Below are positions 9,481-49,060 of a DNA stretch of 64,000 nt, in pieces. Location: NCBI RefSeq assembly GCF_004010195.1, contig NC_057714.1:27207192-27271191 (forward strand), in the 5' to 3' direction. The position numbers and the translations under genes are program-made. Position 1 is the stretch's first letter. Every line of letters starts with the position of its first letter. The notes below the pieces were generated by a model. That model did no database searches and was not told the origin of the DNA. It saw only the letters and a list, made by a program, of their open reading frames with translations. The DNA is from Chiloscyllium plagiosum (taxonomy: Eukaryota).

Positions 9481-10064
9481 TGTCAAGAGTGGTCGACTTT
9501 TAATTTTTAGTCATAGCATGTGTGTATCACTGGCTATGCCAATATTTATTTTCCATTGCTAATTGTCAAAGGGATGTCAGGAATCAATCATGTTGCTGGG
9601 GTCTGGAGTCACATGTAGGCTAGATCAGGTCACATTCCTGGTACTTCCTTCCAAACAGCACACTAGCTGCATCTACACCACTGTAGCAGTCTGAGACGTT
9701 TGTTCACCCGCTTTTCCAAGGACAATAAAGATGGACAACAAATGTTGACCTTGCCTGTGCTATGCCCAGTCTACATGTGAGTTTCCCCAACTTGTTACTC
9801 TTCCAGAGGGAAGCCTCAAACTGTTAAGCAGCCTGTGAGACCGGGAGAACTGTCTCCCCTCTGTATTTCACCCACCCCTAGAGTTGGTCACAACAAGGTT
9901 GATTTTAAAAAGATCACTTCCCTCTTGGGTTTCTTTCTTCCAGCCAAAAATGTACTTAGATTTTAAGGAGAGCCAATTTAAGAAGGTTTTCTTGAATTAA
10001 TAATGAGTGAGTTTATTCAGAAGAAATCGTAACAGAGGAGTCATAAACACAGGTTAGAAATAAG

Positions 10065-10150
10065 TTAAAAATCACACAATGCCAGATTATAGCTAACTTT
10101 GATTTTTAACTTTGTACACCCCAGTCCAACACCGGCATCTCCAAATCATC
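10065..10150. mobile_element. Collapsed PLE family B pLTR hairpin insertion (ribozyme deleted)
   Basis: aagttaaaaatca (10062-10074) is inverted against tgatttttaactt (10100-10112); ends in the family B terminus ggcatctccaaatcat; 12-bp TSD gttagaaataag at 10053-10064 and 10151-10162. Confidence 0.8.
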
Positions 10151-13100
10151 GTTAGAAATAAGAAGTGTGTTCAAAAGATACAAGCTAAAGAAAATTTATA
10201 TGGATAAGTGTCTGAATTGTTCACAAAGAGTAAATAGTTGAACACTGTGGCCATGGAAGTGGATGTTACAAGTAGCATTGACATTAGCAGTTAAACATTT
10301 GATCTCAAGATTTCTGGCTTTGTAGATTGATTGAAACTCTTCTGTTCTGATTCCTTTTGGCAGTAGCTGACTGTCAGCTGAGAAAATATTAGATTTTTCC
10401 CTTTTTACCTACAGTGCAGGGGAATTTAAATGGCTGTTCTCATAAAAGTGACCATCACAGCATACATGCTCACACACTAGGACATGAAGTCAGTAACACA
10501 CAGACACAGGTCTGAAGTTTGTTTTTAACTCTTTCCTTATGTATGTTTGAAACTTGGAATCCCAAATTTGCCTCTTGCCCAGATTGCTGTCTTATTTTAA
10601 ACCGTCATGTTCACAGTCTGAAATACTCTCAGGAGATCAGGAGTGCAATTTGATTTTAATATTCTTGTTTTGAAGCTTCTTTGACAATTCATCAGGAAAT
10701 CCCAGAATCGCTGTCTCCAAATAGCCGCTGAATATACATCTTTTGGCTAACTGTCCTTTTAAGAAAGAGCATGTTATAATGAAAGTTTGAGCAATATGTG
10801 ATCCAGGGTTATGCTCCATCGACATGACACCTGCAATGCCTGCATTCTATGAATGAATCTTACAAATGGTGACTGGCAATAGAAGCTTGATAAAGCTATG
10901 CAATATGTCACATTTTATTATCCATTCTTCAGGAGAACATTTTGCCAAGACTGCTTGCTTTAAAATATCAAGATTATTTTACTACAGTTATTTGTTTTCC
11001 TTCCATTCACTCCACTGAATGTATTGATTTCACAGAGAGGGAATGACTACTGGGGAGTGAAATGTTACACTTCCAATCATTTAACCTGTATAGATACAAA
11101 TTTTCACAATGTCCTATGACAATTTAGAATGGCTAACTAATTCAGGAATGTATGGAGGGTTTTCTGCAAACATGAAATGCAGGTTCAAAGTTTGAAAGTA
11201 GCCTGTTTTCAAACGTGAAAAAGAAATATTGACACAGCTGTATATGTTATTAATCAGAAGTATACATATGTTATCAACAGGGCAGACCTTTTTGCTTCAT
11301 TATATATTGTCTGCCTCCTCGGCTGAGATATTGCATACAGCTGAATTATTTTAAATATAATATCATCGTTCCAAACACAATTTCTGTTTCAGTACGCAGT
11401 TCTCAAAATGCAGTTTAATCATTGGAATTTCTGTCTTTAAGCAGAACAAAACATGTTTTACATTACAGCCATCCGACACTGATGTATGTTTTCAATGTAA
11501 TTTTCTTACATATAAATTACTTTTTACTCTAATTCATTTTCTAATCTCTGGATTCAAGTTTCAAAAATATGATTAATAGGAGATGGCTTTAAAACCTTGC
11601 TTTCAAATTTTGAAGACAAGAAGCAGATAGTTATTGTGATTGATAAAATTGAAATGGCTCAATAGATGTTTACAAACATAAGTATCAGGAAAATACCTCA
11701 TATATTTAGATTGTCCCTCCTTCTATCTTCTCTGCCGTCTTGTCGAGTTTGCACTATTATTTGCTTCAGGTTTTGCTTTTAAATTCACCAACACCAAAAG
11801 CAATTCAAGGGATGACTTTAACCTGAATTCTGGCCAATAAACTTTGCTCCTGTGTTTTTAAGTACTGCAACTTATAAATATGTCAGCAGATAAAACTTAT
11901 CCATCACAGCATTTGTATTATCTCTTCATCTGGAGTTGCTAGCTGACACTTTAACTAGAAACAAGAGGAAATCCTACAGAGAGGACAAATTCTCTTCTTT
12001 CCCTCTTCCCTAATCCTTCCCTGCTACCCCCACTCTTATAAAATGTTTCAATTTAGGCCTTTTGGCCTCAGAGATCAGCAGCCCAGTAAAGAAAATAGAT
12101 TAAGACACTTGATAAATAGGAAGGAAATAATATTATCACAGCATGCCATCTGTAAGTGGACACCAGTGAAATGGGGAAATCTGTATGCAAATAGAAACTC
12201 AATTACAGGAAGATTTTCCACTTGTCACAAATAATTGTATCCCACTCAGCAACATTTGAAGTCCAACACAAGGGCAAGATTTACTTCTCTTGTTGACCAC
12301 ATACAGGAACTGGAGAGAACAGACTTTTTTTTGGGAAAGCTTTCTTTCTGGAGGAAGTTCCAGCATAAGTGATGTGTGAAAGTTTCTTCAATATTTATTT
12401 TCTTGAGGCTTCACTCATCCCTGATGTGATTCTTTCTCATTGTCTTTTTAATGAGTTATTTTGGGATAAATCTTTCTTTGATCATGATTGTTCGGGTTGT
12501 TGGTAAACTTCTTGATTCTAAGCCAGCCTTAAGCTTTACAGAATAAAGTATATACAGGAAGCTTTGAGCTGGGATATTCTTACTTAGAGAGAAATGCTGC
12601 CTCTTCAGAGAGTCAGCAGTTGGTTAAATGTTACACAGCGCAACTTACCAAGTACAGCATTTGACAGTACACACAAGGAAAAGTATTTGATCCTCCACTC
12701 TCTCACAGACCAATTGAACGTGCCCTGAGGCTAAGTGCTGAAAAGCTATGTCAGCCCATGTGAGTGGAGTCTGCAATCCCAACGCACTTTGGAGTAAAGC
12801 CAAGCATGAGTCCCCTCCCCCATTCACTTTGACAAACACATAACTGTGAATGCTACACGTGCAGCTATCTTATAAAAGAAATCACAAAGAAGATCACAAT
12901 AAGAAAGCCAAAGTCTCATAAAAGGTCAATTAAAGCAATGTAGTAGTAAGAGCTTTATGAAATAACTGTCCAAAAGAAAAGGAATATAAATTGACCGAAC
13001 TCCCCTAGGCCGAGGCTTTGAAGTTTCCGTGATACTGTTGCCATCTATAAAAGAGTTTATTTATAACCTGCATGGCTTACCTCTTTTCCCACCATATCAA

Positions 13101-23485: not shown

Positions 23486-23499
23486 AGGAGTTAGCTGTG

Positions 23500-26625: not shown

Positions 26626-27241
26626 TATACGTAAGGTAGAAACTTCCTAAGAATGGTCTCACTTAACTAACTTAAATTCTACCAAACTAAAATATAGCGG
26701 CTCAGACCTACAATACATGGTAACTGAAGTGTGAGGTGTAACACTAAAGTCAATCCATCATTTTAAAGAGTGCATAGGCGAACAGACCTGAAAGTGCTTA
26801 TGCACAAACTTCTGAAGGTGGCACGTTGGTAAAATGATTAATAAAGTATCTGGAATCCTGCACTTTATTAATAGAGAAACAAGCATAAAATAGACTTTAA
26901 ATCAACACCCATTGAAAGTAATCTGATTGTGGCATACAGCTGAGCATTAAATATGCTGTTAAGCGGCTTTATGCCTCAGCAAGTGCTCAAATTCATGCAT
27001 GGTTTGTAAATAGACTGGACTATTCAAAATCAGTCAATGCTTCTTAAAGGGGAGGTGCACTCTGGCCATTGTAAATATTGGGAGTCATTCTAGAAGAGAA
27101 TCTGCTCTGTAGAAGAGTAAGAATGGTACAATATGATAAGCAGCAGGATTCCAGTTTTTCTGATGCAATGCTTGAGGTTGAGGTACAGGAGTTGAACTGG
27201 AGGGGAAATTTTCTGTATCCACTAGTCCCTTCTAAACAAGT

Positions 27242-28748
27242 CCCTTTCCATTTCTATCTCGGATGACCGAATCGACGCGGACATTTACTATAAACAGCTA
27301 CCTAGACTACACCTCCTCCCACCCTGCCCCCTGTAAAAATGCCATCCCATATTCCCAATTCCTTCGTCTCCGCCGCATCTGCTCCCAGGAGGACCAGTTC
27401 CAAAACCGTACAACCCAGATGGCCTCCTTCATCAAGGACCGCAATTTCCTGCCAGACATGGTCGACGATGCCCTCCACCGCATCTCTTCCACTTCCCGCT
27501 CCTCCGCCCTTGAGCCCCGCCCCTCCAACTGCCACCAGGACAGAACCCCACTGGTCCTCACCTACCACCCCACCAACCTCCATGTACAACGTATCATCCG
27601 CCGGCATTTCCGCCACCTCCAAACGGACCCCACCACCAGTGATATATTTCCCTCCCCTCCCCTATCAGCGTTCCGAAAAGACCACTCCCTCCGTGACTCC
27701 CTCATCAGGTCCACACCCCCCACCAACCCANNNNNNNNNNNNNNNNNNNNNNNNNNNNNNNNNNNNNNNNNNNNNNNNNNNNNNNNNNNNNNNNNNNNNN
27801 NNNNNNNNNNNNNNNNNNNNNNNNNNNNNNNNNNNNNNNNNNNNNNNNNNNNNNNNNNNNNNNNNNNNNNNNNNNNNNNNNNNNNNNNNNNNNNNNNNNN
27901 NNNNNNNNNNNNNNNNNNNNNNNNNNNNNNNNNNNNNNNNNNNNNNNNNNNNNNNNNNNNNNNNNNNNNNNNNNNNNNNNNNNNNNNNNNNNNNNNNNNN
28001 NNNNNNNNNNNNNNNNNNNNNNNNNNNNNNNNNNNNNNNNNNNNNNNNNNNNNNNNNNNNNNNNNNNNNNNNNNNNNNNNNNNNNNNNNNNNNNNNNNNN
28101 NNNNNNNNNNNNNNNNNNNNNNNNNNNNNNNNNNNNNNNNNNNNNNNNNNNNNNNNNNNNNNNNNNNNNNNNNNNNNNNNNNNNNNNNNNNNNNNNNNNN
28201 NNNNNNNNNNNNNNNNNNNNNNNNNNNNNNNNNNNNNNNNNNNNNNNNNNNNNNNNNNNNNNNNNNNNNNNNNNNNNNNNNNNNNNNNNNNNNNNNNNNN
28301 NNNNNNNNNNNNNNNNNNNNNNNNNNNNNNNNNNNNNNNNNNNNNNNNNNNNNNNNNNNNNNNNNNNNNNNNNNNNNNNNNNNNNNNNNNNNNNNNNNNN
28401 NNNNNNNNNNNNNNNNNNNNNNNNNNNGATTTCTCCAGTTTCCTCATTTCCCCTCCCTCCACCTTGTCTCAGTCAAATCCCTCGAACTCAGCACCGCCTT
28501 CCTAACCTGCAATCATCTTCCTGACCTCTCCGCCCCCACCCCACTCCGGCCTATCACCCTCACCTTGACCTCCCTCCACCTATCGCATTTCCAAAGCCCC
28601 TCCCCCAAGTCCCTCCTCCCTACCTTTTATCTTTGCCTGCTGGACACACTTTCCTCATTCCTGAAGAAGGGCTTATGCCCAAAACGTCGATTCTCCTGTT
28701 CCTTGGATGCTGCCTGACCTGCTGCGCTTTTCCAGCAACACATTTTCA
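27242..28748 (+). mobile_element. Penelope-like element (family A), 5'-truncated; endonuclease region falls in the assembly gap
   Basis: DIYYK..SYLDYTSSHPAPCKNAIPYSQFLRLRRICS...DRTPLVLTYHP...SAFRKDHSLRDSL (PLE RT thumb and linker); pyrimidine-rich 3' region and pLTR; 14-bp TSD ccttctaaacaagt at 27228-27241 and 28749-28762. Confidence 0.92.
28657..28692 (+). ncRNA. Hammerhead motif (family A) with core G12->A change, likely inactive
   Basis: attc-CTGAAGA-a-gggc-ttat-gccc-AAAA-cgtc-gatt. Confidence 0.65.
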
Positions 28749-29499
28749 CCTTCTAAACAAGTGCTCACTCTGGAATGACCTCCTCCAGAGGTCAATGGTA
28801 ACACTGTCCTGAGATGCTGAATGCAATGTCGGAAGATGTCCAATGAGTGTCTAAACCTGTGAACTCATTTTCTTTTTAACTGAAACATAAGCCCGAGAGG
28901 CTGCTCAATTCACATTAGTCCTTTCACTCACCCACCATCAATCTCAATTTGTCAAAGATTCACATTTATAGCTCTAACACATTCTCACACAAGTAGCTTG
29001 CACACAGAGCCAGCTATTCAACCATATCACCCAGATGTGTTGCCCCATTCTCACTGATGAACACACTTCCCTTCATTTTACAGAGGTAGCTGGTACATAA
29101 GGCAGGAAACAGCAGCAAACTGGTATAGGCCAGGCATCACTGCACACCCTTGAATCATAGAGAAGATACTAATCGCCATAGTTGGAGAAGCCACTGCTCG
29201 GCTCAGGACCGGAGATGAGGCTGAAATCACCAAAGCTAACAGTATCATTATAGTCACACCTCTGCCCCTCATCCCACAATCTCTACTGATATCGTCGGCA
29301 ATCACTTGCTAACGAGACTGGCTGTTCATCTAAATGTTCCGTGGCACTGGGTCATGGGTTCTATGGGTCCTGTGTCGCTGATGAGCCCGATCTGCATTTC
29401 TAACCACACATTTGGCAGCTGTTTCATGAAGGAGGAATTGGTCCTTGGGCCTTGAGCTCACTGGCATTCCTTTCTCCTGTTGCTTTCCTGTTTATCCTC

Positions 29500-29880
29500 T
29501 TGCTGATTGGTGGTCTCAGAGAATTATGAACAAGAGTCTCCTAGCCATTGATATGTACTTTGCATTTCTTGAGAGAAGCCTTCATTCATTCTTCTTTCAT
29601 TCAGCTGCCTTCCCTAAGCTGGGCAAAGTAGAATACCTTCTGAAATGTTGACTGCTAATGAAAGAGACACTTGACTTATTTTACCCATGTCCCTTCCTGC
29701 ATCGCTAACCTCATATCTTTCTCCTTTCAGATACCCACAAACAGCAGGCATTACGGTAGAAGCCTTGATGAACAAGGCACTCATGATGAAAAGACTCAAT
29801 GAGGGAGGATTAACATTGTCTATGAGGGACTGTTGTGCAGTGTTGAAGTTGATAATTCTATTTAAAAACAATGTAAGTTA
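29500..29880 (+). mobile_element. Possible decayed Harbinger transposase remnant
   Basis: YLSPFRYPQTAG resembles WLMTP.R.PQT.AE; CCAVL resembles CCVLHN; weak match. Confidence 0.3.
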
Positions 29881-31435
29881 ATGAACTTAAAATAGGCATT
29901 AAGGGTCATGTCTTCAGTTCATAACAAGATAAAGGAGCATGGCTGCTTTGAATTACACTTGACAATTGGCCTCCCAACTGTTTTTATATCTGCATCCCTG
30001 TTGGAGTTGACTCTTAATCCCACTTGTATCTGTTATAAGAGAGTTTATTTCAATTCTTAAAAGGGTATGATGTAATCAATTAAAAATCTACTTGACAACA
30101 TCTAACTCAGTGTACAGAAATAAGCAGACTAACTCCTTGAGTTAAACGAATAGTTAGATTTATTGTTAAAATAATAAAGATGTATTAAATAAAATTATGT
30201 CCAGCTTCTGCGCACACACAGACACAAGCAAGTAAGTGCGTAGCAAAGAATAGATTGATACAAGTTAAGGTTCATAAGTGAAAGAAATACGCAATTAGAT
30301 AGTGCTTCGATGATCTGTAGTACCAGGTTAAAGGTGGGGTCATTTAATTTGGGGTCTCCTGGAAACAGTCCTATTGAATTGATGGCTTACTTCAAAAATT
30401 TCATTTAGCAGCTTTTGTGAGAGATTTCAGAGAGGGGGTAGGTTAAGGCTGTTAACCGTTTTGTTCTTGTATCAATCTTTCATGATGTTTCAAGCTGGTG
30501 TTACAGAGATAGAGTTGTGGTAGGTCTAATTTTGGCGGCCTGCCCCACCTTTTGTATACTTTGGCAGCAAAGATGGCTACTGTCAGTGAATTGCTTTCAA
30601 ACTGCAAAGATGTGGTCCCAAATAATCCCATCAGGCAATAGAGTTCTCTCTCCACGTAGCCTGAGATCTTTCAATCCTTGACAAGGCAGATTTGTATTCC
30701 CTTACAATGGAAGTGCCAGTAGACATTTAGACATTTACCCGTGTCTGACAACATTGAACCAGTATCAGAAAATGTAGCCTCATTATTCTTAGATTAATCC
30801 TTCCTTAGCAAGTGTGAAAGTCTCCAGGGTCAAGTCGTAATGTCCCTTTTGTAATCCTCTTTGGGAACTACCAGAGAGTTGACAAGCTTAAAGTTACGAA
30901 ATGGTCTGGTAGCAATCCAAAACGTCCATTTAAACAATATATGAAACCAGCCAATGAATTCATGATTAGTATGATATAGCACACCCTCATAAAAAATTCC
31001 ATAAATTCAAACAGAGTCAGTAGAATGTTATCAGTAACTAACCTTCAAATTCCCTCAGATTTTAAGCTGTATTTGCCGGCCCTAATGAGGGTTCTTCCTG
31101 CTGCTGAATTCAGGTTAAATTGTGTAATTGAGAGTATTAGCTGGAACAATAAAGCCCAGAATGGTACTGCAGGTGTAAACTTAATGTTGCAAGTTAATTG
31201 AATCTCAATCTTCTAACTCTATATAATTATTTTATTGCCTGTGCAAACAGCCTCAGTATGATGATGTCCAGCACAGGGCATACTGAAAGGTGCACAAGGC
31301 ATAGGTACCATTTTGGTTTCAATAGGCTCCTACATCTTCAAAATCACCAAGTTTCATGGGCATGAATAAAAAAACTTGGAAGTTATACTAAGTGGATGCT
31401 TAACACTAATTTAGAGCTGGCTGACCTATTATGTT

Positions 31436-31648
31436 GAAACTTTATTGCTGGAACAGCACAGCAGGTCAGGCAGCATCCAGGGAACAGGAGATTCGACGTT
31501 TCGGGCACAGGCCCTTCTTCAGGAATGATGTAGAGAGAGGCCCGAAACGTCGAATCTCCTGTTCCCTGGATGCTGCCTGACCTGCTGTGCTGTTCCAGCA
31601 ATAAAGTTTCAACTTTGATCTCCAGCATCTGCAGACCTCACTTTCTCC
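31436..31648. mobile_element. PLE family A pLTR hairpin insertion with central hammerhead
   Basis: Perfect 74-bp inverted repeat 31433-31506 / 31540-31613; 15-bp TSD ctgacctattatgtt at 31421-31435 and 31649-31663. Confidence 0.92.
31491..31526 (-). ncRNA. Minimal hammerhead ribozyme (family A), intact
   Basis: Minus strand: attc-CTGAAGA-a-gggc-ctgt-gccc-GAAA-cgtc-gaat; stem I attc/gaat, stem II gggc/gccc, palindromic ACGU, GUC cleavage triplet. Confidence 0.85.
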
Positions 31649-31907
31649 CTGACCTATTATGTTCAATTCTGGTCACCATACTTCAAGAATTTGTGAAGGC
31701 TTTGGATAGGGCACAGAAGAGATTTACTAAAATGTTTGTGGAACTATGGATAACAGTGCAATGGATAAACTCTTTAGAGTAAAGTAGACAGAAAGGAGAC
31801 TTGATAGAACGATTTAAAACTGTATTGAGTTTGGATATGGTAACTAACAAGGAACTGTTCACACTGGCTAAAAGATTGGTAACTGGATGGGACTGATTTA
31901 GAGTGAG

Positions 31908-32106
31908 TCATTGAATCCCTACAGTGTGGAAGCAGGCCATTCAGCCCATCAAGTGCACACCAATCTTCCAAAGAGCATCACACCCAAACCCACCCCACTA
32001 CCCTATCCTTGTAACCCTGCATTTTCCATGGCTAATCCACCTAGCCTACACATCCCTGAAGGATATGGGCAATTTAAATGGCCAATCTACCTAACCAATC
32101 TAGCAT
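31908..32106 (-). mobile_element. HE1-type SINE, 3' half
   Basis: gaatccctacagtgtggaagcaggccattcagccc...ggctaatccacctagcctacacatccctg. Confidence 0.85.
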
Positions 32107-34270: not shown

Positions 34271-35063
34271 CATTCAATGTAAAGCATGTATTCTATAATG
34301 TGTTCAGAGCTTTATTACCTCTGTCATCATGCTTCTGCCTTTTTTGTGCCATGTATTAGTATATCATCCATATAACAAATCACTCCTTTTTCCCTTTCTC
34401 GGATTTGAGACTTTGTACTCTGAAAGACTTCTGGGTCCAATGATATTCCAGAGAGTAGACAGTGCAAAGAAAAGCATGCACATGTCATGATAAAGATGAT
34501 TAATAACTTCCTTCCTTTGTTCTAAAAACTTCTCCTCAAGTAACTTCACAGCCCCTTGCACTCAGTGCTCATAGTCCTATTCAAATAGAGTAAAACAGGT
34601 GTACTTACTGGGTCAGCCGGTGAATAAAAGCAGATCCAGCCTTTAATTGTAGTCATGGGAGCTCACTCATGGAGTAAGTTTTGATCACTGCTTTTCGAGT
34701 GTGGAGGTAGCATTCTAGATCTCCCAGTGACTGCGGGTTAGACACTGAAAACCTCTGGTGGGTCTAACACAGGTTGCTCATGACTTCCTGGAATACTTTG
34801 GCCACAAAATTTCACCCTGATCTGACTGGATTTCAGTAGGTAGACCGTGTTGTGTGAAGAATGAGGTAAGTTCCTTTACCATTGCCTTGGCAGACATGGT
34901 TCTCAGGGAACCAGTTTCGGGAAAGTGCGTAACCATATCTGTGATGGTAAGAGTACATTGGTACCCCCATTTTGTTGAGTTGGAGATGCTGGTGTTGGAC
35001 TGGGGTGTACAAAGTTAAAAATCGCACAACATCAGGTTATAGTCCAACAGGTTTAATTGGAAG

Positions 35064-35098
35064 CACTAGCTTTCGGAGCGCCGCTCCTTCATCAGGTG
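35064..35098 (-). ncRNA. Minimal hammerhead ribozyme (family B), intact
   Basis: Minus strand: cac-CTGATGA-a-ggagc-ggc-gctcc-GAAA-gcta-gtg; palindromic AGCU, CUA cleavage triplet. Confidence 0.85.
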
Positions 35099-35479
35099 GT
35101 TGTGGAGTACACAATTGTAAGACACAGAATTTATAGCAAAAGTTTACAGTGTGATGTAACTGAAATTATACATTGAAAAATACCTCGATTGTTTGTTAAG
35201 TCTCTCATCTGTAAGAATGACCATGTTAGTGTCACTTCTTTCATATGTAAATCACAAATTTTATTTTAAAAGTTACATTCTCAGATGAACTTTAACAATT
35301 TGTGTCAGCCCAGATAATGTATTGAAGGTGTTAGCCCCCTGTGTGCTGCTGTCTGTGCCATAATGTTTAGATTGATTCTAATCTAAAAAATGAATTAGCA
35401 GAATCTTACATGGATTCAAGCAGTTTTTGGGCAAAGTACAATGTAACTCTGCAAGTACAAATTCACCCCACAAACATAT

Positions 35480-35706
35480 ATGCGTATGTGTGTGTGGGGT
35501 GGAGTGGGTAGGTTGTGAGTGCCTGTGAGAGAGTGTATATGTGTGAGAGTGAGTGCAAAGGTGTCTAAGTCTGAGAGAGTGCATCTGTGAGTGTGGGTGT
35601 GTGTGTGTCTGTAGGAGTGAGTTTGAGCGTCTGTATGTGTATCTGTGCATAGAAGTGTGTTTGTGTGTGTGCGGGAGTGTTTGTGTATGTCTGTGTCTGT
35701 GTGAGT
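35480..35706. repeat. Degenerate (GT)n/(GA)n microsatellite within the PLE 3' region
   Basis: Imperfect gtgtgt/gagagt run. Confidence 0.85.
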
Positions 35707-35721
35707 ATAGTGCAATGGTGG

Positions 35722-36042
35722 TCACCTGTAAAGTGACATGAACGCAAGGTCCCGTTTGAGGCCCTCTCTATGGGTACCAAAATGAGCTATCAGCCTCTGC
35801 TCGGCCACCTTTCGCTGCTGTCTGTCCCGACGTCCACCTTGGAGGGCGGTCACCCGAAGGTCCAAGGTCGAATGTCCTGGACCACTGAAGTGTTCTCCAA
35901 CTGGAAGGGAACTCTCCTGTCTGTTGATTGTTATGTGATGCTCATTCATCCTCTGTCATAGCCTCTACTCAGTTTCACCAATGTACTATGCCTCAGGGCA
36001 TCCTTGTCTGCAGCATATGAGATAGACAACGTTGGCTGAGTC
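35722..36042 (-). pseudogene. GIY-YIG endonuclease domain of the Penelope element (in-frame stops)
   Basis: DSANVVYLICCRQGCPEA*YIGETE*RL*QRMNEH...PVGEHFSGPGHS...EQRLIAHFGT..EGL. Confidence 0.92.
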
Positions 36043-36043
36043 T

Positions 36044-36565
36044 GATTAGATTACTTACAGTGTGGAAACAGGCCCTTCGGCCCAACAAGTTGATGAGTTG
36101 AGCATTGTACCCCGCTCTTATGAGGGATCCCTGAGTACTTCCAGGTGCCTGTCATGTTCCTCCTCATCTGAACAGATCCTGTGTATGCGTAGGGCTTGTC
36201 CATAGGGGATGGTTGTTTTAATATGTTTTGGGTGCAAACTGGAGAAGTGTAGCATTGTGAGGTTGTCTTGGGTTTGTGGTAGAGTTTGGTGCTGAGGTGT
36301 CTTTGGAGATGCATGTGTCCAAGAATCAGACCCTCCGAACAGCAACCCACCCAGACCCATTCCCCTATATTTACCCCTTCACCTAACACTACGGGCAATT
36401 TAGCATGGCCAATTCACCTAACCAGCACATTTCTGGACTGTGGGAGGAAACCGGAGCACCCGGAGGAAACCCACGCAAACTCCACACAGACAGTTGCCCG
36501 AGGCGGGAATTAAACCCGGGTCTCTGGCACTGTGAGGCAGCAGTGCTAATCACCGTGCCGCCCAC
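36044..36565 (-). mobile_element. HE1-type SINE inserted in the PLE, itself carrying a copied PLE RT segment (36091-36326)
   Basis: Head ggcggcacggtgattagcactgctgcctcacag; tail ctgtaagtaatctaatc; splits the PLE peptide between GRYSCD and SANVVY. Confidence 0.9.
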
Positions 36566-36824
36566 AAGTCGCATGAGTACCTGCCACATACATGGTGTGA
36601 GGTATCCCCACATGTAATGGTGGTATCCATGTCCACACTGTGACACGTCTTGCAGTGCCTACCATGGAGTTGTCCTGAAAGCCAGGCAGTTTGCTACGAA
36701 CAATAATTTGTTTGAGGTTTGTTGGTTGTTTAAAGGCGAGCAGTGGAGGTGTGGGGAAGGTCTTGGCGAGGTGCTCATCCTCATTGATATGTGTTGCAGG
36801 CTGCGAAGAACATGGTGTTGTTTT

Positions 36825-38125
36825 TCAGCTCCTGGGAAGTACTGGACAATGAAGGGTACCCTGTCGGTTTGCAGCACATGTCTGTCTCCTGAGGAGGTCG
36901 TTACAGTTCCTTGCTGTGGCACGTTGGAACTGGCAGTCGATGAGTTGAGCATTGTACCCCGCTCTTATGAGGGCATCCCTGAGTACTTCCAGGTGCCTGT
37001 CATGTTCCTCCTCATCTGAACAGATCCTATGTATGCGTAGGGCTTGTCCATAGGGGATGTTTTGTTTTAATATGTTTTGGGTGGAAACTGGAGAAGTGTA
37101 GCATTGTGAGGTTGTCTGTGGGTTTGAGGTAGAGTGTGGTGCTGAGGTGCCCATCCTTGACGGAGATGCATGTGTCCAAGAATGAGACAGATAGTCGAGA
37201 GTAGTCCATGGTGAGTTTGATGGTGGAATGAAACTTGTTGATATCACTATGTAGTTTTATCAGTGATTCCTCACTGTGGGTTCAGAGGAAGAAATTGTCA
37301 TCAATGTACCTGGTATATAGTGTTGGTGGAAGGTTCTGCATAGAGAAGAAATATTGTTCGAATCTGTGCATGAAGATGTTGGCATATTGGAGCGCAAATT
37401 TGGTCCCCATGGCTGTCCCATGTGTCTGGATGAAGAACTGGTTGTCACAGGTTGTGATCAAGGATAAAGTAGATGAGTTGTAGGATGGTGCTCAGAGACT
37501 GGGAGTTGTTGGTGTTAAGTACTGAGGCTGTTGCCATGATGCTGTCATTGTGGGGATGCTGGTGTAGAGTGCAGAAACATCCATTGTGACTGGTCAGTGG
37601 CTGCTGAGTTTCTGTAAGAAATCTGTAGTGTCGCGACAGAAGCTGGGGATCCCTGTCCAATGGTTTCAAGATGCCTTCGACATAGCCAGAGAGGTTCTCA
37701 CACAGGGTCCCATTGCCTGATACGATGGGATGTCCTGGTGTATTGGCTTTGTGTATCTTTGGAAGGCAGTAGATGTCGCGTACACGAGAAGTACATGGGT
37801 TGAGGGCACATAGGGAACTCTGAAGAACTGGATCCAAAGTCCTGACCAATGTGTTTAGTTCACAGGTGTGCTGTTTGGTCAGATCAGCCGGTAGTTGCCT
37901 GTCGTGTTCCTGGTTGTTCAGTTGTTGGTACACTTCCTTGCAGTAAATTGTTCTATTCTGAGTGATGATGGCTCCTCCTTTATCTGCTGGCTTGATGACA
38001 ATGTCGTGATTGGTTTTGAGAACCTGGATGGCATTGTATTGTGAACGGGTGATGTTTTGCTCCAACTTGTGGGTACGGCTGATGAATCTGTCATTTATAT
38101 ATTTCCTGATGGTTTGAGCATACAT
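36825..38125 (-). pseudogene. Penelope reverse transcriptase domain (frameshifted)
   Basis: ORF fragments 37445-38125, 37027-37209 and 36825-37247 plus intervening frames carry PADKG, PKIHK, GTAMG, YIDD and FLD motifs. Confidence 0.93.
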
Positions 38126-38924
38126 GTCAAGCCAAGGGCAGCGGCCCTCCAGTGGGGTTCAAGTTGACTCCTTCTTTGGTCGCTTCTCTATGGATCCCTG
38201 TGATGATTGTTCCTGTTCGTCAGTGGGCTCGTTGGAATCACTGCTGGCACCTTGAAAGAATTCCTGGAGTCTCATTACTCTGATAAATTCCTCCGTGTCT
38301 GCTGCAAGAACCAAGGGGTCCATTTTGGTGGTGGGGCAGATATGTTGGTGGTAAGGATACATTGGTACTCCCATTTTGTTGAGGCAGGGATCACACACAC
38401 ACAGTCCACTAACATTTTGTTGAATGGTTCCTCAAAAGCCAGCGCTGATATATGGGGCTTTGAGCGTCTGTTGTCAGTCACATTAACTTGTGTGAAGGAC
38501 AATGGGAGGGTGTTCTGATTACAATCACCGACAGCATTACCTACGGCATGATACGTTTTAGTATTCACTTGTTCAGACTGCCGGACATTCCTTTGGAATC
38601 TTGTAAAAGAGACAATACTGATTTGCTTTGTGTTTTTAACTTCCTTTTTTGTAGATTCCAGTCATTTATTTGTGTAACCCAAAAGTTTCACAATGATCTT
38701 ACCAGCTTCCAGATGTAAAATGAGGGATTAACAACTGTTATGTTAACAGGGAACTGGGACCTAAGGGAAAAGGTGCTATTAGAATCCTGCTGAAACATGT
38801 GTCTGTAAATAAGTAAATAAATGTTTATTAATTTGTCCTGGCTCAATTTCTTGTCCTCATCTGTCAAGTAAGAAGATTATGGCATGATATTTATACATCA
38901 GTGATACACTGGTTGCTGTATATC

Positions 38925-40244: not shown

Positions 40245-40980
40245 TGGAGTCATAGAGGCTTACAGCATAAAGAAAGACCCCTCAGCCTATCAAGTCTGTG
40301 CTGGTCAAAAACAACCACGTAACTATTGTCACCCCATCTTCCAGCACTTAACCCATAGCCTTGTATGTCTTGGCATTGTAAGTGAACATCTAAATAGTTC
40401 TTGAATGTTGTGAGGGTTTGTGCCCCAGCACCCTTATAGGCAGTGAGTTCCAGACTGCTGCCACATTCACTTTAAACCTCCTGCTCCTTACCTTAACTTT
40501 ATGTCTCTTGGTCATTGATTCCTCACCAAGGGGAATAATTTAGTCTACCCTGTCTTGTAATTTTACTCATCTCAATCGTGTCCCACTTAGTTACCTCTGC
40601 TCCAAGGAAAACAACCCCAGTCTGTCTAATCTCTCTTCATCACTAAACTCTCCAGACCAGGCAATAAATCTCCTGTGTACCCTCTTCAGTGCTATCATGT
40701 TCCTCTGACAATATGGATTCCAGAACTGTACACAATACTCTAGCTGTGGCCTAACCAACTTTTTATACAGCTCCAGCATAACTGCCCTGTCCTTAACTCT
40801 ATGTTAAGAGCAGAACTCGGCTCTGGAGAAGGGTCACTGGATCCAAAACATTAACTCTACATTCTCCCCACAAATGCTGCCAGACCTGCCGATTTTTCCA
40901 GCAATTTCCGATTTTGTTTCTTAAGCTCTATGCCTTGGCTAACATAGAAAAGTATCCCATATGCTACTTTAACCAATGAA
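40245..40980 (-). mobile_element. CR1/HER1-type LINE 3' fragment
   Basis: MLELYKKLVRPQLEYCVQFWNPY...EERLDRLGLFSLEQR. Confidence 0.9.
40804..40919 (+). mobile_element. Older PLE pLTR-derived insertion with a decayed hammerhead
   Basis: CTGGAGA-a-gggtc-actg-gatcc-AAAA-cattaactc...gctgccagacctg...tttttccagcaattt; approximate TSD cttaactctatg (40792-40803) / cttaagctctatg (40920-40932). Confidence 0.6.
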
Positions 40981-41173
40981 TTGGAGATGCTGGTGTTGGA
41001 CTGGGGTGTACAAAGTTAAAAATCACACAATACCAGGTTATAGTCCAACAGGTTTAATCGGAAGCACACTAGCTTTCGGAGCGACAATCACCTGATGAAG
41101 GAGCGTCGCTCCGAAAGCTAGTGTGCTTCCGATTAAACCTGTTGGACTATAACCTGGTGTTGTGTGATTTTTA
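40981..41173. mobile_element. PLE family B pLTR hairpin insertion with central hammerhead
   Basis: 74-bp inverted repeat with one mismatch, 41012-41085 / 41105-41178; 15-bp TSD actttaaccaatgaa at 40966-40980 and 41174-41188. Confidence 0.92.
41089..41123 (+). ncRNA. Minimal hammerhead ribozyme (family B), intact
   Basis: cac-CTGATGA-a-ggagc-gtc-gctcc-GAAA-gcta-gtg. Confidence 0.85.
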
Positions 41174-44100
41174 ACTTTAACCAATGAAGGAGGCATTGTA
41201 AGATTGCGGCAAAAGCACATCAAGGTCATCGATGCTGTTCATCTGGCACAGGCCCCTACAAACCCCAGCTCTACCTCTGCCAGCCTATGTACAGCCAAAT
41301 TGCTCCCTAAGTAGTACAGGTGTGTTGCCAACTTAACCACATTGCCCTAACTTCCGAAAATGTGATGGTTCAAAGGTGCTAGTGGTGTCCAGGCAGATAT
41401 TCCAACGTTAACAATTCTAATGGAAGTGCACAAGGCATACAGATATATGGGTCCTTTACTCTTTCCTACCATTCGTGAGCTGAAGAAAGTAGGGACCCCA
41501 ATGATCCCTGACATGAGTTCCTAATTATAACTGGGTTGTCAGGTGCTTCCCCACAGGAAGGGAGGAGGAATGAGTCAATAAATCCCCTCCGGCTTTCCAG
41601 TAGGTTCCAGTTATATAGTAACTAATAAAGTGACATCAACAGAGGCCCATCATGGATTAGCTGATTACTTTGCATCCAGAGAAGCAAGAACCTAAAAGGG
41701 AGATTCAAGTAAACAGAGTTAAGTTCTGAATCAGCAAGAAGCTGATGTGACATTTCTAGTATTTTCAAAAACAACTTTCAAGTTTGACTTTTGCCTAAGC
41801 TATAAATAAATGGAATGTATTTTGAATGCACCACTGTTGATTTTCAATTTCCTATTCAGCGGGAAATGCAGTATCATTCATAATGCTCAGATCTCAGTAT
41901 GCTGCTCAAGGTTAAATCAGATTGTCTCAAGGGAATTATATCAGCTCCTTTTTCTGCTTTAAGCAACATTCATGACATTCTGTAATCATCTCAGTGTCAC
42001 ATTAAAATTCATTGAGATGATGATGAAAGAATTATTTAGAGAGGCAAATTGTCTCAAGACTGTGAGCTTGCAACTGGATCTTTGATTTCTTGTCTGCTTC
42101 AAGTGTAATTATTCAACATATCAACATGTAAAGTTATACATGTCACTAGAAACCAGAATTTTATTATTAGGCTTTTATATAAAAAATACATTTTGTGGTT
42201 GACAGATGAAACAACTCATCAAAAAATTGAAATGTACGCTAAAATCAACATTGCTTCTAAAAGCAAAGGAGATCAAAATGTGACTGCTTACCCAGTACTT
42301 TGTAAAGATACTTATAATTCCTGATGCCCTGGAACAACTTTAGTACGTTGCAGAAATATAGGAAGAATTTATGTTAGCTTTGATTGAAAAAGGAAAGTCA
42401 GATGATTTAATCCAACTGATTTTTTAAATATGAAACTTATATAAGGTAGTTTGTGATGTTGCAAGTGTATTGTATTACATTTTCTTAATTAGGTTATATA
42501 TGGTTAGTAGGAAATTTCATTAGCAAGAGTAGAGAGATGGCATTTTAAAAATGCCTCTGTAGGTTTGTGGAATTAATGGGATCAGTATTTCTATAATTAC
42601 TGTGTTAACTTTTTCACCCATGAATTTAATCATCCAATATCCAAAACTATTTCTATGACCTTGGGACAAGTATAGTTGACCATGGCTTACTACATTTTCC
42701 GTGCATGTTCAACAATAATGAACTTTATTTCAGTGTCCCATAGATATGATATCTTTACCTTCTTGATGAAAGGAGTAAAATATCCTAACTAACATGTCTG
42801 ATAAAAATTGTAGTTACTATAAATATCTCGTAATCTGGTCTTAAATGTCTGATGATGAGGTCTGATTCTCTCCACATAAAAAAAGGCACTAGATAGATTT
42901 ACATGGGTTCGCTGTTGAAACAAAACCCATAATCACATTGTCTAAAAATGTCTAAAAAGGAAAAGTACTTGATGGCTTTCTTGATGAATTGACTTGTTTT
43001 TAAATTTAGCTGGCTCCTTGAATGAAAAAAAACTAAATGCAAAAAACATATGTTTCAAAGTATCTCAATAAAGTTCCACAACTATCAACTAAGAAGTGCC
43101 ACATATTTCTGGAGTTAATTTTAATAATGGTAACAAACAGCTTTGCAAGTTGATATACTATTTGTAAAAGCTTGCACTTACATATTAATATAGCACATGT
43201 TTGCTACTTTCAACCAATGAATTCATTCTGAGTCTGGGGAATTAAAACAGGAAAATAAGGTGACAGCAGATGAATTGAACAGGTAGTTTGTACCATTTCG
43301 TTAGAGAATACTCATAACATTCCAGAAGTAGCTGATAACCAGGAACTGGAAAAAAGGGAGAAACACAAGAAAATTACAATTTCCAGAGTTGCAATTAGTT
43401 TCACCAGTCCACAAGTCACAATTTAAAATTAAAATGCTTTATTTCCAGTTGCCAAGATGACCAAGTGATATGTACCTGCATCAGGATTTACACAAAAATA
43501 TCTGTTAATCAGGTTTCTTAATAGACATGCATTATAAGAAAACAATATTTAATAATGATGCAATAATTAGTTAACATACACAGTCAGTAATGTGGCCCAC
43601 ACATATTCACTAAATAAATATGCAAACATTCTTCAACAAAAGAGAAAAAAACAGATCTCTCCACAAAAATTGACTTTCTGAAACAAAAGAATACTATACT
43701 AGAATGTAAAAGGATAAATCCTAGGATGTTGTAGATTCTATTACTCTGATGTTCTGACATGCGTGGTCAAGTCACTAATCATGCTTGATTGTCTCTGAAG
43801 TCTTGCAAATTGAGATTTGCAGAATTGAGAAATACAATCTTGAGATATTCCTTCAACCACACTTTCAAAAAGCATCCTGTGTTTCACTGAACTGATGTAG
43901 AAGGTTTTCCTTTCAGAAATGGGAGAGGTCAGCTGAGCAGGCTTTTCATAGCTAGCTTATTTCCAATTCAGCTTGCTTCCCTGACCAAAATCAGATAAAT
44001 TAAGAATCACTCCAAGCCAATCACTGCTTAAAAAAAAAGCTTCCAGCATCATCAGCAAAGTGAACAGTTACCAACAGTCATGTGATTTCTAGGAAGTCTT

Positions 44101-45479
44101 GTTAAAATAAATCTCCAAAGTCCACAGTGAACTTTCAATGACTACTTTTAAAAAGCTATTGCAGGTATGCCCACAAACCCTTTCCCGCAATCAATCAAAA
44201 TATTTGTCTTCCAAATAATATTAAGATAAACCATCCTTGCCACACCAACACTTGAAAAAACAAAATGATTTTTTAAATATATTTCAATATAAATTGTGGA
44301 CAAAATAAATATGTTGAAAAAGATTATGGCACATCCACACTCCTCTTTCCCTCTTTATTGAACAACAAAATCTTTTTTGTGCTTAAACAATTCAAACAAT
44401 GTTACATTCTTTCAAAGCATCAATGCTTAAATTATCTTTGCCCTGAAATGTGAACAATCTTTAAAGTAAGGTTGTGACAGCAAATCTTATTGATGCAGTC
44501 TGTCATTTTGGTTTTTAAACCTTTCCATCAACGTGAAAGGAATATGATCATTATATACAACTGTCTCTTTGTGACCAGGATAGAAATTTGATTTTATTGA
44601 ATCAGGGAACGTGGGCTTCTTTGGCTGCTCTTTATTGCCCTTCTCAAATTGCCCTTGAGATGGTGGTGATGACATTCCATTTTGAACTGCTGCAGGGATG
44701 TATGCTCACAATACTGTTAGGGTGGGGGTTTCAGGATTTTGACCCTGTAACATTGAAGGAATGACAAGCCATGATGATTAGTGTTTGGAGAGGAACTTGC
44801 GGTTGTAGCATTCCCACGCATGTTCTTCCCTTATCCTTCTAGATGGCAGTGGTTGTGGATTTGGAAGGTGCTGTCTAAGGAGCTGTGCTGAACTTCTGTA
44901 CTGTATCTTGTAGATGGTATACACTGTAGCTAATGTGCATCAGTGGTGAAGGGAGTGGATGTTTGTGGATTTACGTTGTTGTACTAGATGGTGTCAATCG
45001 TTTTGAGTATTGTTTGAGCTGCACTCATCCAACCAAGTGGGGAGTATTCCATCATACTCCACATCTGATTTGTCTCCCTGTAGACAAGCTCTGGGGAGTG
45101 AGAAAGAAAGTTACTTGCTGCAGGATTTCTAGCCTCTAACATGTTCCTTTAGCTTCTATGTTTACATGGTAAGTCCAGTTCAGTTTCTGATAAGTGGTAA
45201 TCTTTAGGATGTGAATTTTTGGACATTCATTAAAGGTAAAGTCATTAAAAGTTCAGTGGTAATGGTTAGATTCTCTCGTGTTGGAGATGATCATTACCTG
45301 GTGTAACTTGCCACTTGTCAACCTGGACGTTAATAAATATGTTTCATTATCTGATGAATCTTGGAAGATGCTGAACATTGTGCAATATCAGTGAAAATCT
45401 CACTTTTGCCCTATGATGGAGGGAAGGTCATTGATGATGTGGCTAAAGATGAGCCTAGGACTCTACTCTGAGGAGCTTC

Positions 45480-45597
45480 CAGGTAAAAACAATAACTGCA
45501 GATGCTGGAAACCAGATTCTGGATTAGTGGTGCTGGAAGAGCACAGCAGTTCAGGCAGCCTGAACTGCTGTGCTCTTCCAGCACTACTAATCCAGAA
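45480..45597. mobile_element. PLE pLTR-related hairpin insertion lacking the ribozyme
   Basis: 44-bp inverted repeat with one mismatch, 45513-45556 / 45558-45601, 1-nt loop; 13-bp TSD tctgaggagcttc at 45467-45479 and 45598-45610; resembles family A (ctgcagatgctgga...agcacagcag.tcaggcagc). Confidence 0.85.
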
Positions 45598-45875
45598 TCT
45601 GAGGAGCTTCTCCAGAGATACGTTCAAGCTGAGATGACTGACCTGCAACCATCATCCACTGTGTTGGGTATGACTCCAACCAAGGGATCGATTTCCCGAT
45701 TCCTATTAAATCTAACTTTGCTACGACCCCTTGATATCACACCCAGTCAAATGCAGCCTTCATATGAAGGATGGTCACCTTCACCTTGCCTCTGGAATCC
45801 AGCTCTTTTATTCAAGTTTTAATTAAAGATGTAATAATATCAGGAACTGAGTGGCATTGATGAAACCCAAAGTGT

Positions 45876-47159: not shown

Positions 47160-47630
47160 GAGTTGAAGTTTGATTTATTGTTGGCACATGTAATGAGATA
47201 CAGTGAAAAGTGCTGTTTTGTGTGCTCACAGACAGATCATACCACAGAAAGTGCATCAGGGTGGCAGAATAGAGTGTGGAATATAATGTTACAGTCAGAG
47301 GGAAGGTGCAGAGAGAGAGAGCTCAGAATTAATGTTTGAGGGGTCTATTCAAAACTCTGATAACAGCAGGGAAGAAGCTGTCCTTGAATCTGTTTGTTCA
47401 CGTATCCAAACTTTTATATCTTCTGCCTGATGGATGAGGGTGGAACAGAGTATAACCAGGGTGGGAGGGGTTTTTGATTATGTTGACTGCTTTCCTGAGA
47501 CAATGGGAATGTAGAGGGAGTCAATGGATGGAAGGATGGACTGGGCTGTGTCCACGACTCGTGTGATCTTGGGAAGAGCAGTTGCCAAACCCATGCTGTG
47601 ATGCATCCAGAGAGGTTGCATTCGATGGTG
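47160..47630 (-). mobile_element. Rex1-type LINE 3' fragment
   Basis: Related to 16250-16950 in reverse (gggaagaagctgtccttgaatctg...gggtgggagggg). Confidence 0.75.
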
Positions 47631-47894
47631 TTCTTTTAGTTTGAAAAGTATTACACAGCTTTGGAAAAGATCAGCTGGTGTTACATTTTTTACAAATCAT
47701 TAGTTCTGGCTGCTGAAGTAAATTGCCATTATGCCTTTACCAAATCTACTAAGGCAAATATTCTGACTCTGCCAACACTATCAGCATATTTTCCCACTGG
47801 AGAGATTAGGTAGGAATCCACTTTTGCTGTTGCACTTATCTTTCTGTTATCAGTGTAGAATCTGGTTGAACCATCAGGCTTAAGCTTGACACTC

Positions 47895-48078
47895 ATTAGA
47901 GCCAAAGAGTCCGACAGCACGGAGACACGCCCTTTGGCCCAAACCAGTCTATGCCGTCCAAAACGTCCATCCACGCTAACTCCATTTTCCTGCACTTGGC
48001 CCATATCCTTCTAAACCTTTCCTATCCATGTATTTGTCCAAATGTGTTGTTAACGTACTTGCCTCAATAGAATCATAG
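47895..48078 (-). mobile_element. CR1/HER1-type 3' tail fragment
   Basis: ccattttcctgcacttggcccatatccttctaaacctttcctatccatgt, as in other CR1 tails here. Confidence 0.75.
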
Positions 48079-48474
48079 AGTAATTATTGGGGACTTCCAG
48101 CAGCTTTGATTGTGTACAATTCGATGATTTTTCCAAAATGCTTTGGATTTTTGTTTTTACCTGGGCCTATTTCTCTGGACCTTCTCTGAGGAGGATGATG
48201 TTTTGTTGGAGAGAATTTTCCCAAATCCACATCAGGTATGGCTAAAAGTGTACACTATTGTTTGTTCCAACAACATCTTTAAATTTGGTGAATAACCTTG
48301 TCAATTCTTGTCATTCTTTTATATCTAACAATGAAATTACAGTATTGAACCTCCCTATCTTTCAGTGTCAGTAGGTGGTTTGGATTTGAATTCTCTCTTC
48401 ACCACTATTCCTTTCACCCTCCACTGCCCTTATTATCTGTCACACCTGCACTTTCTTTACTGCTCTAGATGATG

Positions 48475-48687
48475 TCTTTGAGGAGAAAGTGAGGTCTGCA
48501 GATGCTGGAGATCAGAGCTGAAAATGTGTTGCTGGAAAAGCGCAGCAGGTCAGGCAGCATCCAGGGAACAGGAGAATCGACGTTTCGGGCATAAGCCCTT
48601 CCTGAAGAAGGGCTTATGCCCGAAACGTTGATTCTTCTGTTCCCTGGATGCTGCCTGACCTGCTGCGTTTTTCCAGCAACACATTTT
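48475..48687. mobile_element. PLE family A pLTR hairpin insertion with central hammerhead
   Basis: About 88-bp inverted repeat with a few mismatches, 48514-48601 / 48607-48694; 15-bp TSD ctgctctagatgatg at 48460-48474 and 48688-48702. Confidence 0.92.
48598..48633 (+). ncRNA. Hammerhead motif (family A), core intact, weak stem I, GUU site
   Basis: cttc-CTGAAGA-a-gggc-ttat-gccc-GAAA-cgtt-gatt. Confidence 0.7.
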
Positions 48688-48900
48688 CTGCTCTAGATGA
48701 TGGTAATGCTTCAACGTCTCAATGTGCCACTGCCAATTCTTTTCCTGACAGTCTGGGATATTAATAAAATAATTTACTTTACCAATTATTTTGATTTGAC
48801 TTGATTTGATTTATTATTGTCACATGCACCTAGGTACAGTAAAAAGTTTTCTTTTGCATTCAATGCAGGCTGATCATACCATACAAAGTGCATTAGGGTA

Positions 48901-49060
48901 ATAGTCCAACAGGTTTAATTGGAAGCACTAGCTTTCAGAGTGCTGCTCCTTCATCAGGTCTCCACAACCACCTTCCAATTAAACCTGTTGGACTATAACC
49001 TGGTGTTGTGTGATTTTTAACTTTGTACACCCCAGTCCAACACTGGCATCTCCACATCAT
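48901..49060. mobile_element. PLE family B pLTR hairpin insertion with decayed hammerhead
   Basis: Perfect 25-bp inverted repeat 48901-48925 / 48972-48996; minus-strand CTGATGA-a-ggagc-agc-actct-GAAA-gcta-gtg at 48926-48957; no clear long TSD. Confidence 0.85.

Follow-up and report, generated by a model that had tools for sequence, protein, structure and literature searches.

Insertions of EN+ Penelope elements (PLEs) contain an adjacent inverted, 5′-truncated copy and a one-sided tail of 30–40 bp (PMC3846280; PMC8557442). According to PMC8557442, how such inverted copies and the tail arise has yet to be settled. For the Anolis element PAc (Poseidon of Anolis, Frangieh et al. 2024, PMC11167929), target nicking was shown in vitro, together with cleavage and extension of both strands, two internal start sites that bound the tail and the use of uncleaved RNA; the start site did not differ between top and bottom strand, and the pairing of one of each lay outside that assay. 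In LINE-1 (L1), mRNA capping gives rise to an extra G, and twin priming comes with discrete TSDs of 12–18 bp (PMC11702581). Opposite-strand hammerhead pairs 100–700 bp apart have been described in Schistosoma (PMC4209133; bioRxiv 10.64898/2026.07.22.740005).

The window analysed here, a stretch of 64,000 nucleotides from Chiloscyllium plagiosum, contains six short insertions, each made of one antisense and one sense piece of a PLE end whose 5′-truncated ends meet centrally (Table 1). An earlier note on this DNA had listed them; all six were recovered where it had placed them, as were the exact TSDs of 12–15 bp in five and the hammerhead cores in four. The arms are asymmetric, one of them bearing a tail of ~35 nt. 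Cores were searched as CUGANGA, stem II, GAAA and a palindromic ACGU or AGCU stem III, and this motif search found none in inserts 10065 and 45480. Insert 10065 is barely a hairpin: only about 13 nt are common to both arms, and the repeat search did not list it.

Table 1. PLE-derived features of the window (arm coordinates relative to hammerhead C3 = 0; hammerheads predicted by motif)
Feature	Span	Size	Strand	Flanking repeat	Composition
Family A relative	881..1980		+	9-bp direct repeat, 872-880 / 1981-1989	N-terminal ORF fragment joined to hammerhead-plus-tail unit 1835-1978
Family B stub 10065	10065-10150	86 bp	.	TSD 12 bp, 10053-10064 / 10151-10162	tail-less antisense arm about +55..+85, short filler, tailed sense arm +71..+120
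Family A 5′-truncated copy	27242..28748		+	TSD 14 bp, 27228-27241 / 28749-28762	RT end, N gap, 3′ UTR, hammerhead at 28661, tail-less end
Family A (subfamily A2) hairpin 31436	31436-31648	213 bp		TSD 15 bp, 31421-31435 / 31649-31663	tail-less antisense arm with full hammerhead, C3 at 31522 (-); tailed sense arm +16..+124
Family B 5′-truncated, broken copy	34980..38345		-	38-bp direct repeat	RT fragments, GIY-YIG-like region, hammerhead at 35095, tailed end; interrupted by SINE-like repeat
Family B hairpin 40981	40981-41173	193 bp		TSD 15 bp, 40966-40980 / 41174-41188	tailed antisense arm +13..+122; tail-less sense arm from A(-8), preceded by G; C3 at 41092 (+)
Family C (A-related) hairpin 45480	45480-45597	118 bp		TSD 13 bp, 45467-45479 / 45598-45610	both arms stop near +48; left arm tailed; no hammerhead
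Family A (A1) hairpin 48475	48475-48687	213 bp		TSD 15 bp, 48460-48474 / 48688-48702	tailed antisense arm; tail-less sense arm; C3 at 48602 (+)
Family B hairpin 48901	48897-49060	about 164 bp	.	no TSD of at least 10 bp	short antisense arm -2..+60, C3 at 48957 (-), stem II decayed; 12-nt templated filler; tailed sense arm +34..+122

Parental PLEs had also been claimed for the window. It does hold family A and family B relatives, all of them truncated or broken and none an intact source. Four ORF fragments of the window gave a single sub-threshold DUF match in Pfam and none in a PDB sequence search; domain matches were therefore sought in longer copies. Family B relatives matched RVT_1 (E = 2.5e-8 and 2.9e-9) with DKG and YIDD motifs and carry the hammerhead end in the same loci; the family B arms are therefore continuous with a PLE-type RT ORF. 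For family A, where the reading covered the region after the RT core, an IIY...YIGET motif was recognized by eye (the Pfam GIY-YIG match, E = 0.033, is below the cut-off) and two loci (L277 and L280) have a CX2-5CxxC linker before the putative endonuclease, a Neptune/Nematis motif (PMC8557442). Family B shows a broken VVY...YIGET region in the window and, in the broken copy, only a partial CxxC linker. All 30 loci examined for full-length 5′ ends were short or rearranged, and the family B equivalent of the full-length 5′-end pattern matched in the window only.

The distribution of such insertions was analysed in pre-chosen genome stretches (1,347,584 bases; 1.35 Mb). From 102 candidate hairpins, 15 failed a preset filter that required a junction gap within -14..31 and arms of at least 20 nt, and 7 long-armed ones were set aside; 2 duplicated loci were removed for de-duplicated counts. 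Such hairpins are present throughout the genome: the sample yielded 74 further ones, about 1 per 18 kb, bringing the set to 80 and agreeing with the dense occurrence claimed from the window; extrapolated from this density, the genome would hold roughly 10^5. Hairpins measure 77–256 bp in the sample (median 185), cover 13,329 sampled bases (about 1%) and are the form taken by 80 of 298 sampled end-bearing loci (about 27%). TSDs of at least 10 bp flank 59 of the 80, compared with 11 of 200 random position pairs, and range from 10 to 20 bp. Sixty-two hairpins belong to family A and 18 to family B; no mixed A/B hairpin was present among them.

Among two-arm clusters, head-to-head ones outnumber tail-to-tail ones by 84 to 3, with outer arm ends gathering near +83..+95 and +120..+126, and 77 of the 80 hairpins combine one tailed with one tail-less arm. 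Solo family-A arms are tailed and tail-less in equal measure (67:66), a contrast with the one-tail rule of the hairpins that is highly significant (P about 1e-19). The arm extending further 5′ is the tail-less one in 36 hairpins, the tailed one in 22 and neither in 17 (n = 75). We considered that a single cDNA or antisense RNA might self-prime at the centre and copy itself into the second arm. Self-priming has been proposed for head-to-head PLE palindromes (Arkhipova 2013, PMC3846280), R2 proteins have been seen to snap back once full-length cDNA was made (PMC11371274), and private variants are common to both arms: non-majority variants coincide 13 times compared with 2.7 in shuffled pairs. 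Nested (22/75) and level (17/75) hairpins, and a few exactly palindromic centres, would also fit this route. However, 36 of the 75, including 10065, 31436 and 40981 from the window, are non-nested, each arm holding sequence absent from the other; simple fold-back is thus excluded for those hairpins and as the sole route. Moreover, the tail is found on either side of one and the same junction (see below), and a strand copying itself would have no reason to halt where the inner start site lies, directly against the TSD. As a general explanation fold-back is therefore unlikely, although the slight excess of symmetric centres (17 compared with 12.3 by chance, P = 0.07) suggests that a minority of hairpins may have arisen by it.

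The hairpins had been described as ribozyme-centred. The predicted hammerhead is indeed central in four of the window inserts, but as a defining trait it did not hold up: only 3 of 150 arm ends lie within 2 nt of the predicted cleavage site, so that arm ends defined by cleavage were rejected, and the complete hammerhead span is absent from 23 of 78 hairpins. In the folded hairpin, a long helix would lock up most of the ribozyme. Sample and window together contain 79 motif matches with palindromic ACGT/AGCT; since an Rfam scan returned no hammerhead hit (only 5 sub-threshold miRNA-hairpin matches), these are ribozymes as judged by motif inspection.

Arms stop just short of the hammerhead on its 5′ side: in 55 of 75 hairpins one or both of them end within -12..+5. 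Genome-wide counts of exact patterns place family-A1 ends at -4 (6197), -2 (3506) and -6 (1451), and among the first 100 matches listed, inspected by eye, the preceding base is G in 57 at -4, 15 at -2 and 13 at -6. In family B, G precedes A(-8) in 73 of the first 100 matches listed, again by eye. Microhomology with the other arm can supply part of this excess; about 33 of the 57 family A cases remain after removal by eye of those with upstream letters possibly derived from the other arm. Taken alone, the unbiased sample gives a weak signal: G precedes 8 of 14 ends at -4, and a count that also includes family C reads 6 G, 6 A, 12 T and 21 C. A splice-acceptor origin of the G was rejected, as the parents have no AG before A(-4) or A(-8), and no upstream exon common to the copies appeared in the lists of family A and B end matches. 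Arm ends as a whole spread from about -10 to +10, and 47 family-A cores match upstream over at least 30 nt, indicating that read-through templates are copied too. From the clustering of DNA ends and the excess of G we infer a capped transcript start at A(-4) in family A and A(-8) in family B. With twin priming left unchanged, the same clustering might be produced if the polymerase stalled near the hammerhead at an RNA structure or a bound protein and not at the RNA 5′ end. Ends scattered over about 20 nt, 14 tandem-array junctions with jumps at -2 to -70 and long copies that pass the site would fit stalling. Against it, the extra G sits at one position per family, before A in a pyrimidine-pyrimidine-A context, this position differs in its distance from the core (-4 versus -8), and solo short copies stop in the same zone as hairpin arms; we regard stalling as quite improbable.

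We then compared central junctions. It had been claimed that every junction differs; this is true of the window and of the 75 non-duplicated sampled loci, but not of the genome, where two exact junctions recur 994 times (that of hairpin 48475) and 42 times. Shared junctions had been proposed as the sign of a propagating family. The high copy number and uniform size (77–256 bp) would also suit such a family, whether a MITE-like unit or a retrozyme-like hairpin RNA mobilised in trans. The sharing does not prove propagation, since the junctions were formed repeatedly. Among 30 copies of the 994-copy junction examined, the tail is on the left in 19, on the right in 10 and on both sides in 1, with no tail-less/tail-less copy, and this junction occurs on different source variants and several subfamily backgrounds; the filler junction of 31436 occurs once in the whole genome. 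Junction-sharing pairs in the sample are no more frequent than expected by permutation (25 versus 21.4, P = 0.25), and the only identical junctions there have a common TSD, meaning that they were duplicated together with their flanks. At a second recurrent junction the tail is mostly on the left (23 of 30 copies examined, compared with 4 on the right), which suggests that the two arms are not fully independent. DNA-transposon termini have symmetric ends and a fixed TSD length, unlike the asymmetric ends and 10–20 bp TSDs seen here. Propagation is thus very improbable and largely refuted, although small propagating subfamilies could survive. Once inserted, the stubs are inert and are not propagated as units. 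Of the two origins offered in the earlier note, abortive PLE integration is supported and a mobilised small RNA is not, on the evidence of junctions, tail sides and variants; the view that the insertions are retro-derived, built from PLE sequence only and formed independently is upheld.

Palindromes are a known assembly risk and this assembly is gappy. An artefact is nevertheless hardly conceivable: the two arms of a hairpin are rarely identical (2 of 38 tested; mean identity 0.90), the TSDs are distinct, and an independent public run contains a contig sized for an empty 31436 site with one target copy. An empty 40981 site is only suggested, by a public-run alignment that begins at the right TSD and is preceded by 135 letters; the listed joints of the public-run alignments included no empty site.

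Taken together, the hairpins are insertion products of PLEs predicted to be EN+, formed anew at each site, probably by twin priming, run-off and end-joining. The following steps are envisaged: (i) staggered nicks about 12–16 bp apart would create the observed TSD, (ii) one target end would prime at an inner start site (about +85..+92) and the other at an outer one (about +124), the 35 nt between them leaving the observed tail-less and tailed arms with element 3′ ends outward, (iii) on mRNA that is capped 4 nt (family A) or 8 nt (family B) before the hammerhead core, the polymerase would run off after 90–135 nt, often copying the cap as an extra base, much like strong-stop cDNA, and (iv) cDNA ends would be trimmed and joined by a repair pathway that produces the observed blunt, microhomology (1–5 nt) or short-filler junctions. 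The hammerhead would be central because it adjoins the transcript start. The variants shared by the two arms and the absence of mixed A/B hairpins speak for this model as well; arms that disagree at a subfamily marker in 3 of about 27 loci speak against it. The spacing between start and hammerhead is not universal, since the mapped start of Drosophila Penelope precedes the hammerhead by about 120 nt, and an intron lies between the two. We further suggest, at not quite an even chance, that PLE integration is obligately two-ended: a dimeric enzyme would prime one target strand at each of the two start sites in a single RNA; where the template is monomeric capped mRNA, both cDNAs would run off the cap, giving about 10^5 integrated strong-stop cDNA pairs. 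If so, the tail, the inverted copy and the need of full-length transposition for tandem read-through RNA would be explained, PLE start sites could be mapped from DNA alone, and about 1% of the genome would be seeded with dsRNA hairpins against the element's own 5′ end.

Such minimal insertions provide a countable record separating the self-priming proposed in the literature from twin priming, and their anatomy gives predictions for the existing in vitro PLE system. Genome annotation could mistake about 1% of the sampled sequence for MITEs or miRNA precursors; if transcribed, stems of 45–90 bp could feed small-RNA silencing or editing. Searches of the open literature returned no description of PLE hairpins lacking an ORF, of the one-tail rule or of a cap-type G in these elements.

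MITEs are likewise short, non-coding, TSD-flanked inverted repeats of high copy number, but the hairpins have a 35-nt end asymmetry, variable TSDs, ends continuous with RT and putative GIY-YIG ORFs and de novo junctions. MITE-like descent from one founder structure was rejected, given the unique 31436 filler, the switching tail side and the several backgrounds. The hammerheads share with those of metazoan PLEs and non-LTR retrozymes the minimal type I form, the palindromic 15.2-16.2 and an extra base before stem II (PMC4209133). Retrozymes are head-to-tail tandems thought to cycle via circular RNA (bioRxiv 10.64898/2026.07.22.740005), whereas the hairpins are inverted, often lack the full hammerhead span and do not propagate. 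L1 twin priming shares RT extension of both target ends, end-joining, 12–18 bp TSDs and the run-off extra G, but its second primer anneals internally by microhomology and its pieces barely overlap (PMC11702581); in the present insertions the two arms represent one and the same interval, read from two fixed start sites, and so make a hairpin. PAc resembles the hairpins in that its tail lies between two internal RT start sites, cleavage and extension affect both target strands, uncleaved hammerhead RNA serves as template and an ATG falls in stem II, as in family A1; it differs from family A, which has the Neptune/Nematis-type linker, and the passages of that paper contain no joined inverted products, one-of-each pairing or capped-end run-off (PMC11167929). 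The published EN+ PLE insertions have the same head-to-head inverted truncated copy, one-end tail, TSD and hammerhead in the terminal repeat, the difference being that both copies here are only 20–135 nt long and have no ORF. The one-tail rule, non-nesting and extra G are absent from the passages of PMC3846280 and PMC8557442, and these, with the arm stop 5′ of the hammerhead, are what is added here to an inverted-copy-plus-tail layout already published. The hairpins are a minimal case of that layout and not a new class of element.

All six short head-to-head pairs of Penelope-like element (PLE) ends listed in the earlier note were found in the window, and the exact target site duplications (TSDs) of 12–15 bp claimed for five of them were confirmed; no TSD was found for the sixth. 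The hairpin description holds for five, which are inverted repeats of 29–88 nt, but the arms of 10065 overlap by only ~13 nt. As had been claimed, four of the six retain the core of a minimal type I hammerhead whose stem III is a palindrome of four bases, a dimer-type form known from PLEs according to the available text of PMC4209133; Rfam did not recognize the window hammerheads, the core being found as a motif. Read in the direction of the ORFs, both copies in an insertion have their element 3' end at the outer edge, and they meet at the centre by their 5'-truncated ends.

Features in the window (TSD-flanked insertions are given by start)
Position	Feature	Insert (bp)	TSD (bp)
1-435	Fragment of another, LINE-type RT (Pfam RVT_1, E 4e-6, under cut-off)		
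881-1980	Family A copy, permuted: N-terminal ORF fragment, then directly a hammerhead-plus-tail unit; 9-bp direct repeat flanks		
1848-1978	ATG within hammerhead stem II loop, family A1; frame opens through tail		
10065	Hairpin	86	12
28724-31420	Aligned part of public run contig		
31436	Hairpin	213	15
34942-34979, 38346-38383	38-bp direct repeat (89% identical) on both sides of truncated family B copy		
36088-36331, 36935-37188	254-bp family B ORF piece, present twice		
40981	Hairpin	193	15
45480	Hairpin	118	13
48475	Hairpin	213	15
48897-49060	Hairpin (48901)		
49376-49452	Old solo family C end, absent from the earlier list		

Parental PLEs had also been reported in the window; the arms do match the ends of three copies there, but these copies are truncated. 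The RT encoded by longer family B relatives has a DKG motif (Pfam RVT_1). Family A relatives carry a linker of the form CX2-5CxxC and, with a weak Pfam score, a GIY-YIG-like domain, and their sequence therefore points to the Neptune/Nematis type. The direct repeat around the truncated family B copy is much longer than the usual 12–16 bp TSD, and its junction was found once in the genome. The duplicate of the ORF piece lies inside a SINE-like repeat interrupting the same copy, 700 bp off, and looks like local template capture.

The census drew on 14 large contigs, from which 14 blocks of 100 kb were taken at round-number positions (1,347,584 non-N bases). Sample and window together gave 391 arm matches in 276 clusters, two-arm clusters being head-to-head in 84 cases versus tail-to-tail in 3. 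Realignment yielded 298 records with 102 candidate hairpins, of which a fixed filter kept 87; 80 are short, 74 of these outside the window. Hairpin density in the sample is 1 per 18 kb (2–12 per block; 1.0% of sequence), which extrapolates to roughly 10^5 across the genome. TSDs of at least 10 bp, mostly 12–16 bp, flank 59 of the 80, versus 11 of 200 random pairs. The hairpins are real and abundant; they are not a new mobile class but the smallest version of a known PLE insertion layout.

Arms either carry an extra ~35-nt tail, ending at about +124 (counted from the hammerhead core, C3 = 0), or end tail-less at about +85 to +92. One arm of each kind is paired in 77/80 hairpins; solo family A arms split 67:66. 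Non-majority variants are common to both arms in 13 instances, versus 2.7 in shuffles, and A/B mixed hairpins number 0/80, so both arms come from the same source, be it one RNA or two sibling RNAs, although later homogenisation could add to variant sharing. A single fold-back, in which one cDNA copies itself into the second arm (available text of PMC3846280; R2 snap-back), may account for a minority, symmetric centres being slightly commoner than expected (p 0.07), but is ruled out for about half of the cases: in 36/75 hairpins it is the tail-less arm that extends more 5' (nested, 22; level, 17), and neither arm of those 36 therefore contains the other. In the sampled hairpins, family A arm ends also cluster secondarily at +52 to +59 (11/124 ends at +55 to +59), possibly reflecting trailing polymerase stalling; of the copies of one junction of this kind, 23/30 have the tail on the short arm.

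The statement that every junction differs stands in part. Near-shared junctions among 75 de-duplicated hairpins are at chance level (25 seen, 21.4 expected), and the 31436 filler junction occurs once genome-wide, but that of 48475 has 994 genome copies and is family-like at first sight. Of the first 30 of these, 19 have a left-hand tail, 10 a right-hand one and 1 a tail on both sides, and flanks are each copy's own; the junction is also found on different subfamily variants. Founder copying could presumably retain or drop a tail, not move it to the other side. Recurrent junctions therefore arise repeatedly, favoured by microhomology. The public run contig (285 letters remaining, end near 31934) fits an empty 31436 site with a single target copy, as deduced from alignment tables that list no joint. 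Five subfamily A2 loci (L232, L234, L237, L243 and L252) are head-to-tail arrays in which short ORF-start fragments run into new hammerhead units, the joints lying at -2 to -70; template jumping and retrozyme-like tandems are candidate explanations.

At least one arm ends within -12 to +5 of the core in 55/75 hairpins, and 3/150 ends lie at the predicted cleavage site. Exact-pattern genome counts of family A1 ends were 6197 at -4, 3506 at -2 and 1451 at -6. By eye, the preceding base was G in 57, 15 and 13, respectively, of the first 100 matches listed for each, and before A(-8) of family B in 73 of the first 100 listed (26% expected), these being first places on first contigs with some loci counted twice. 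About 33 of the 57 at -4 stay after by-eye removal of those explicable by the other arm; in a small unbiased sample the effect was not clearly visible. A(-4) and A(-8) are each an A preceded by two pyrimidines, an initiator-like context, and PLE transcripts probably start there in families A and B, respectively. For L1, the available text of PMC11702581 ascribes an extra G at run-off junctions to mRNA capping.

Hairpin formation probably proceeds as follows. Staggered nicks would open the target, each target strand would prime at one of two start sites, and both cDNAs would extend to the capped RNA 5' end or halt sooner; trimming and end-joining of the two would give the hairpin, and read-through templates the long and tandem copies. 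The central place of the hammerhead would follow from its position directly downstream of the transcript start; its activity in the folded hairpin is predicted to be unlikely, since the stem of the predicted fold takes up most of the ribozyme. The broad arm-end distribution, the small surplus of symmetric centres, the skew of the second recurrent junction (23:4) and the start-site spacing in Drosophila Penelope, which differs from that of families A and B, count against this model.

The interesting part of the hairpins is this mechanistic signal (one-tail pairing and the extra G), of which no description was found in the literature searched. The two arm-end classes correspond to the two internal RT start sites of an Anolis element, in which both target strands are cut and extended (available text of PMC11167929). 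An ATG in hammerhead stem II, as in family A1, is likewise reported there.
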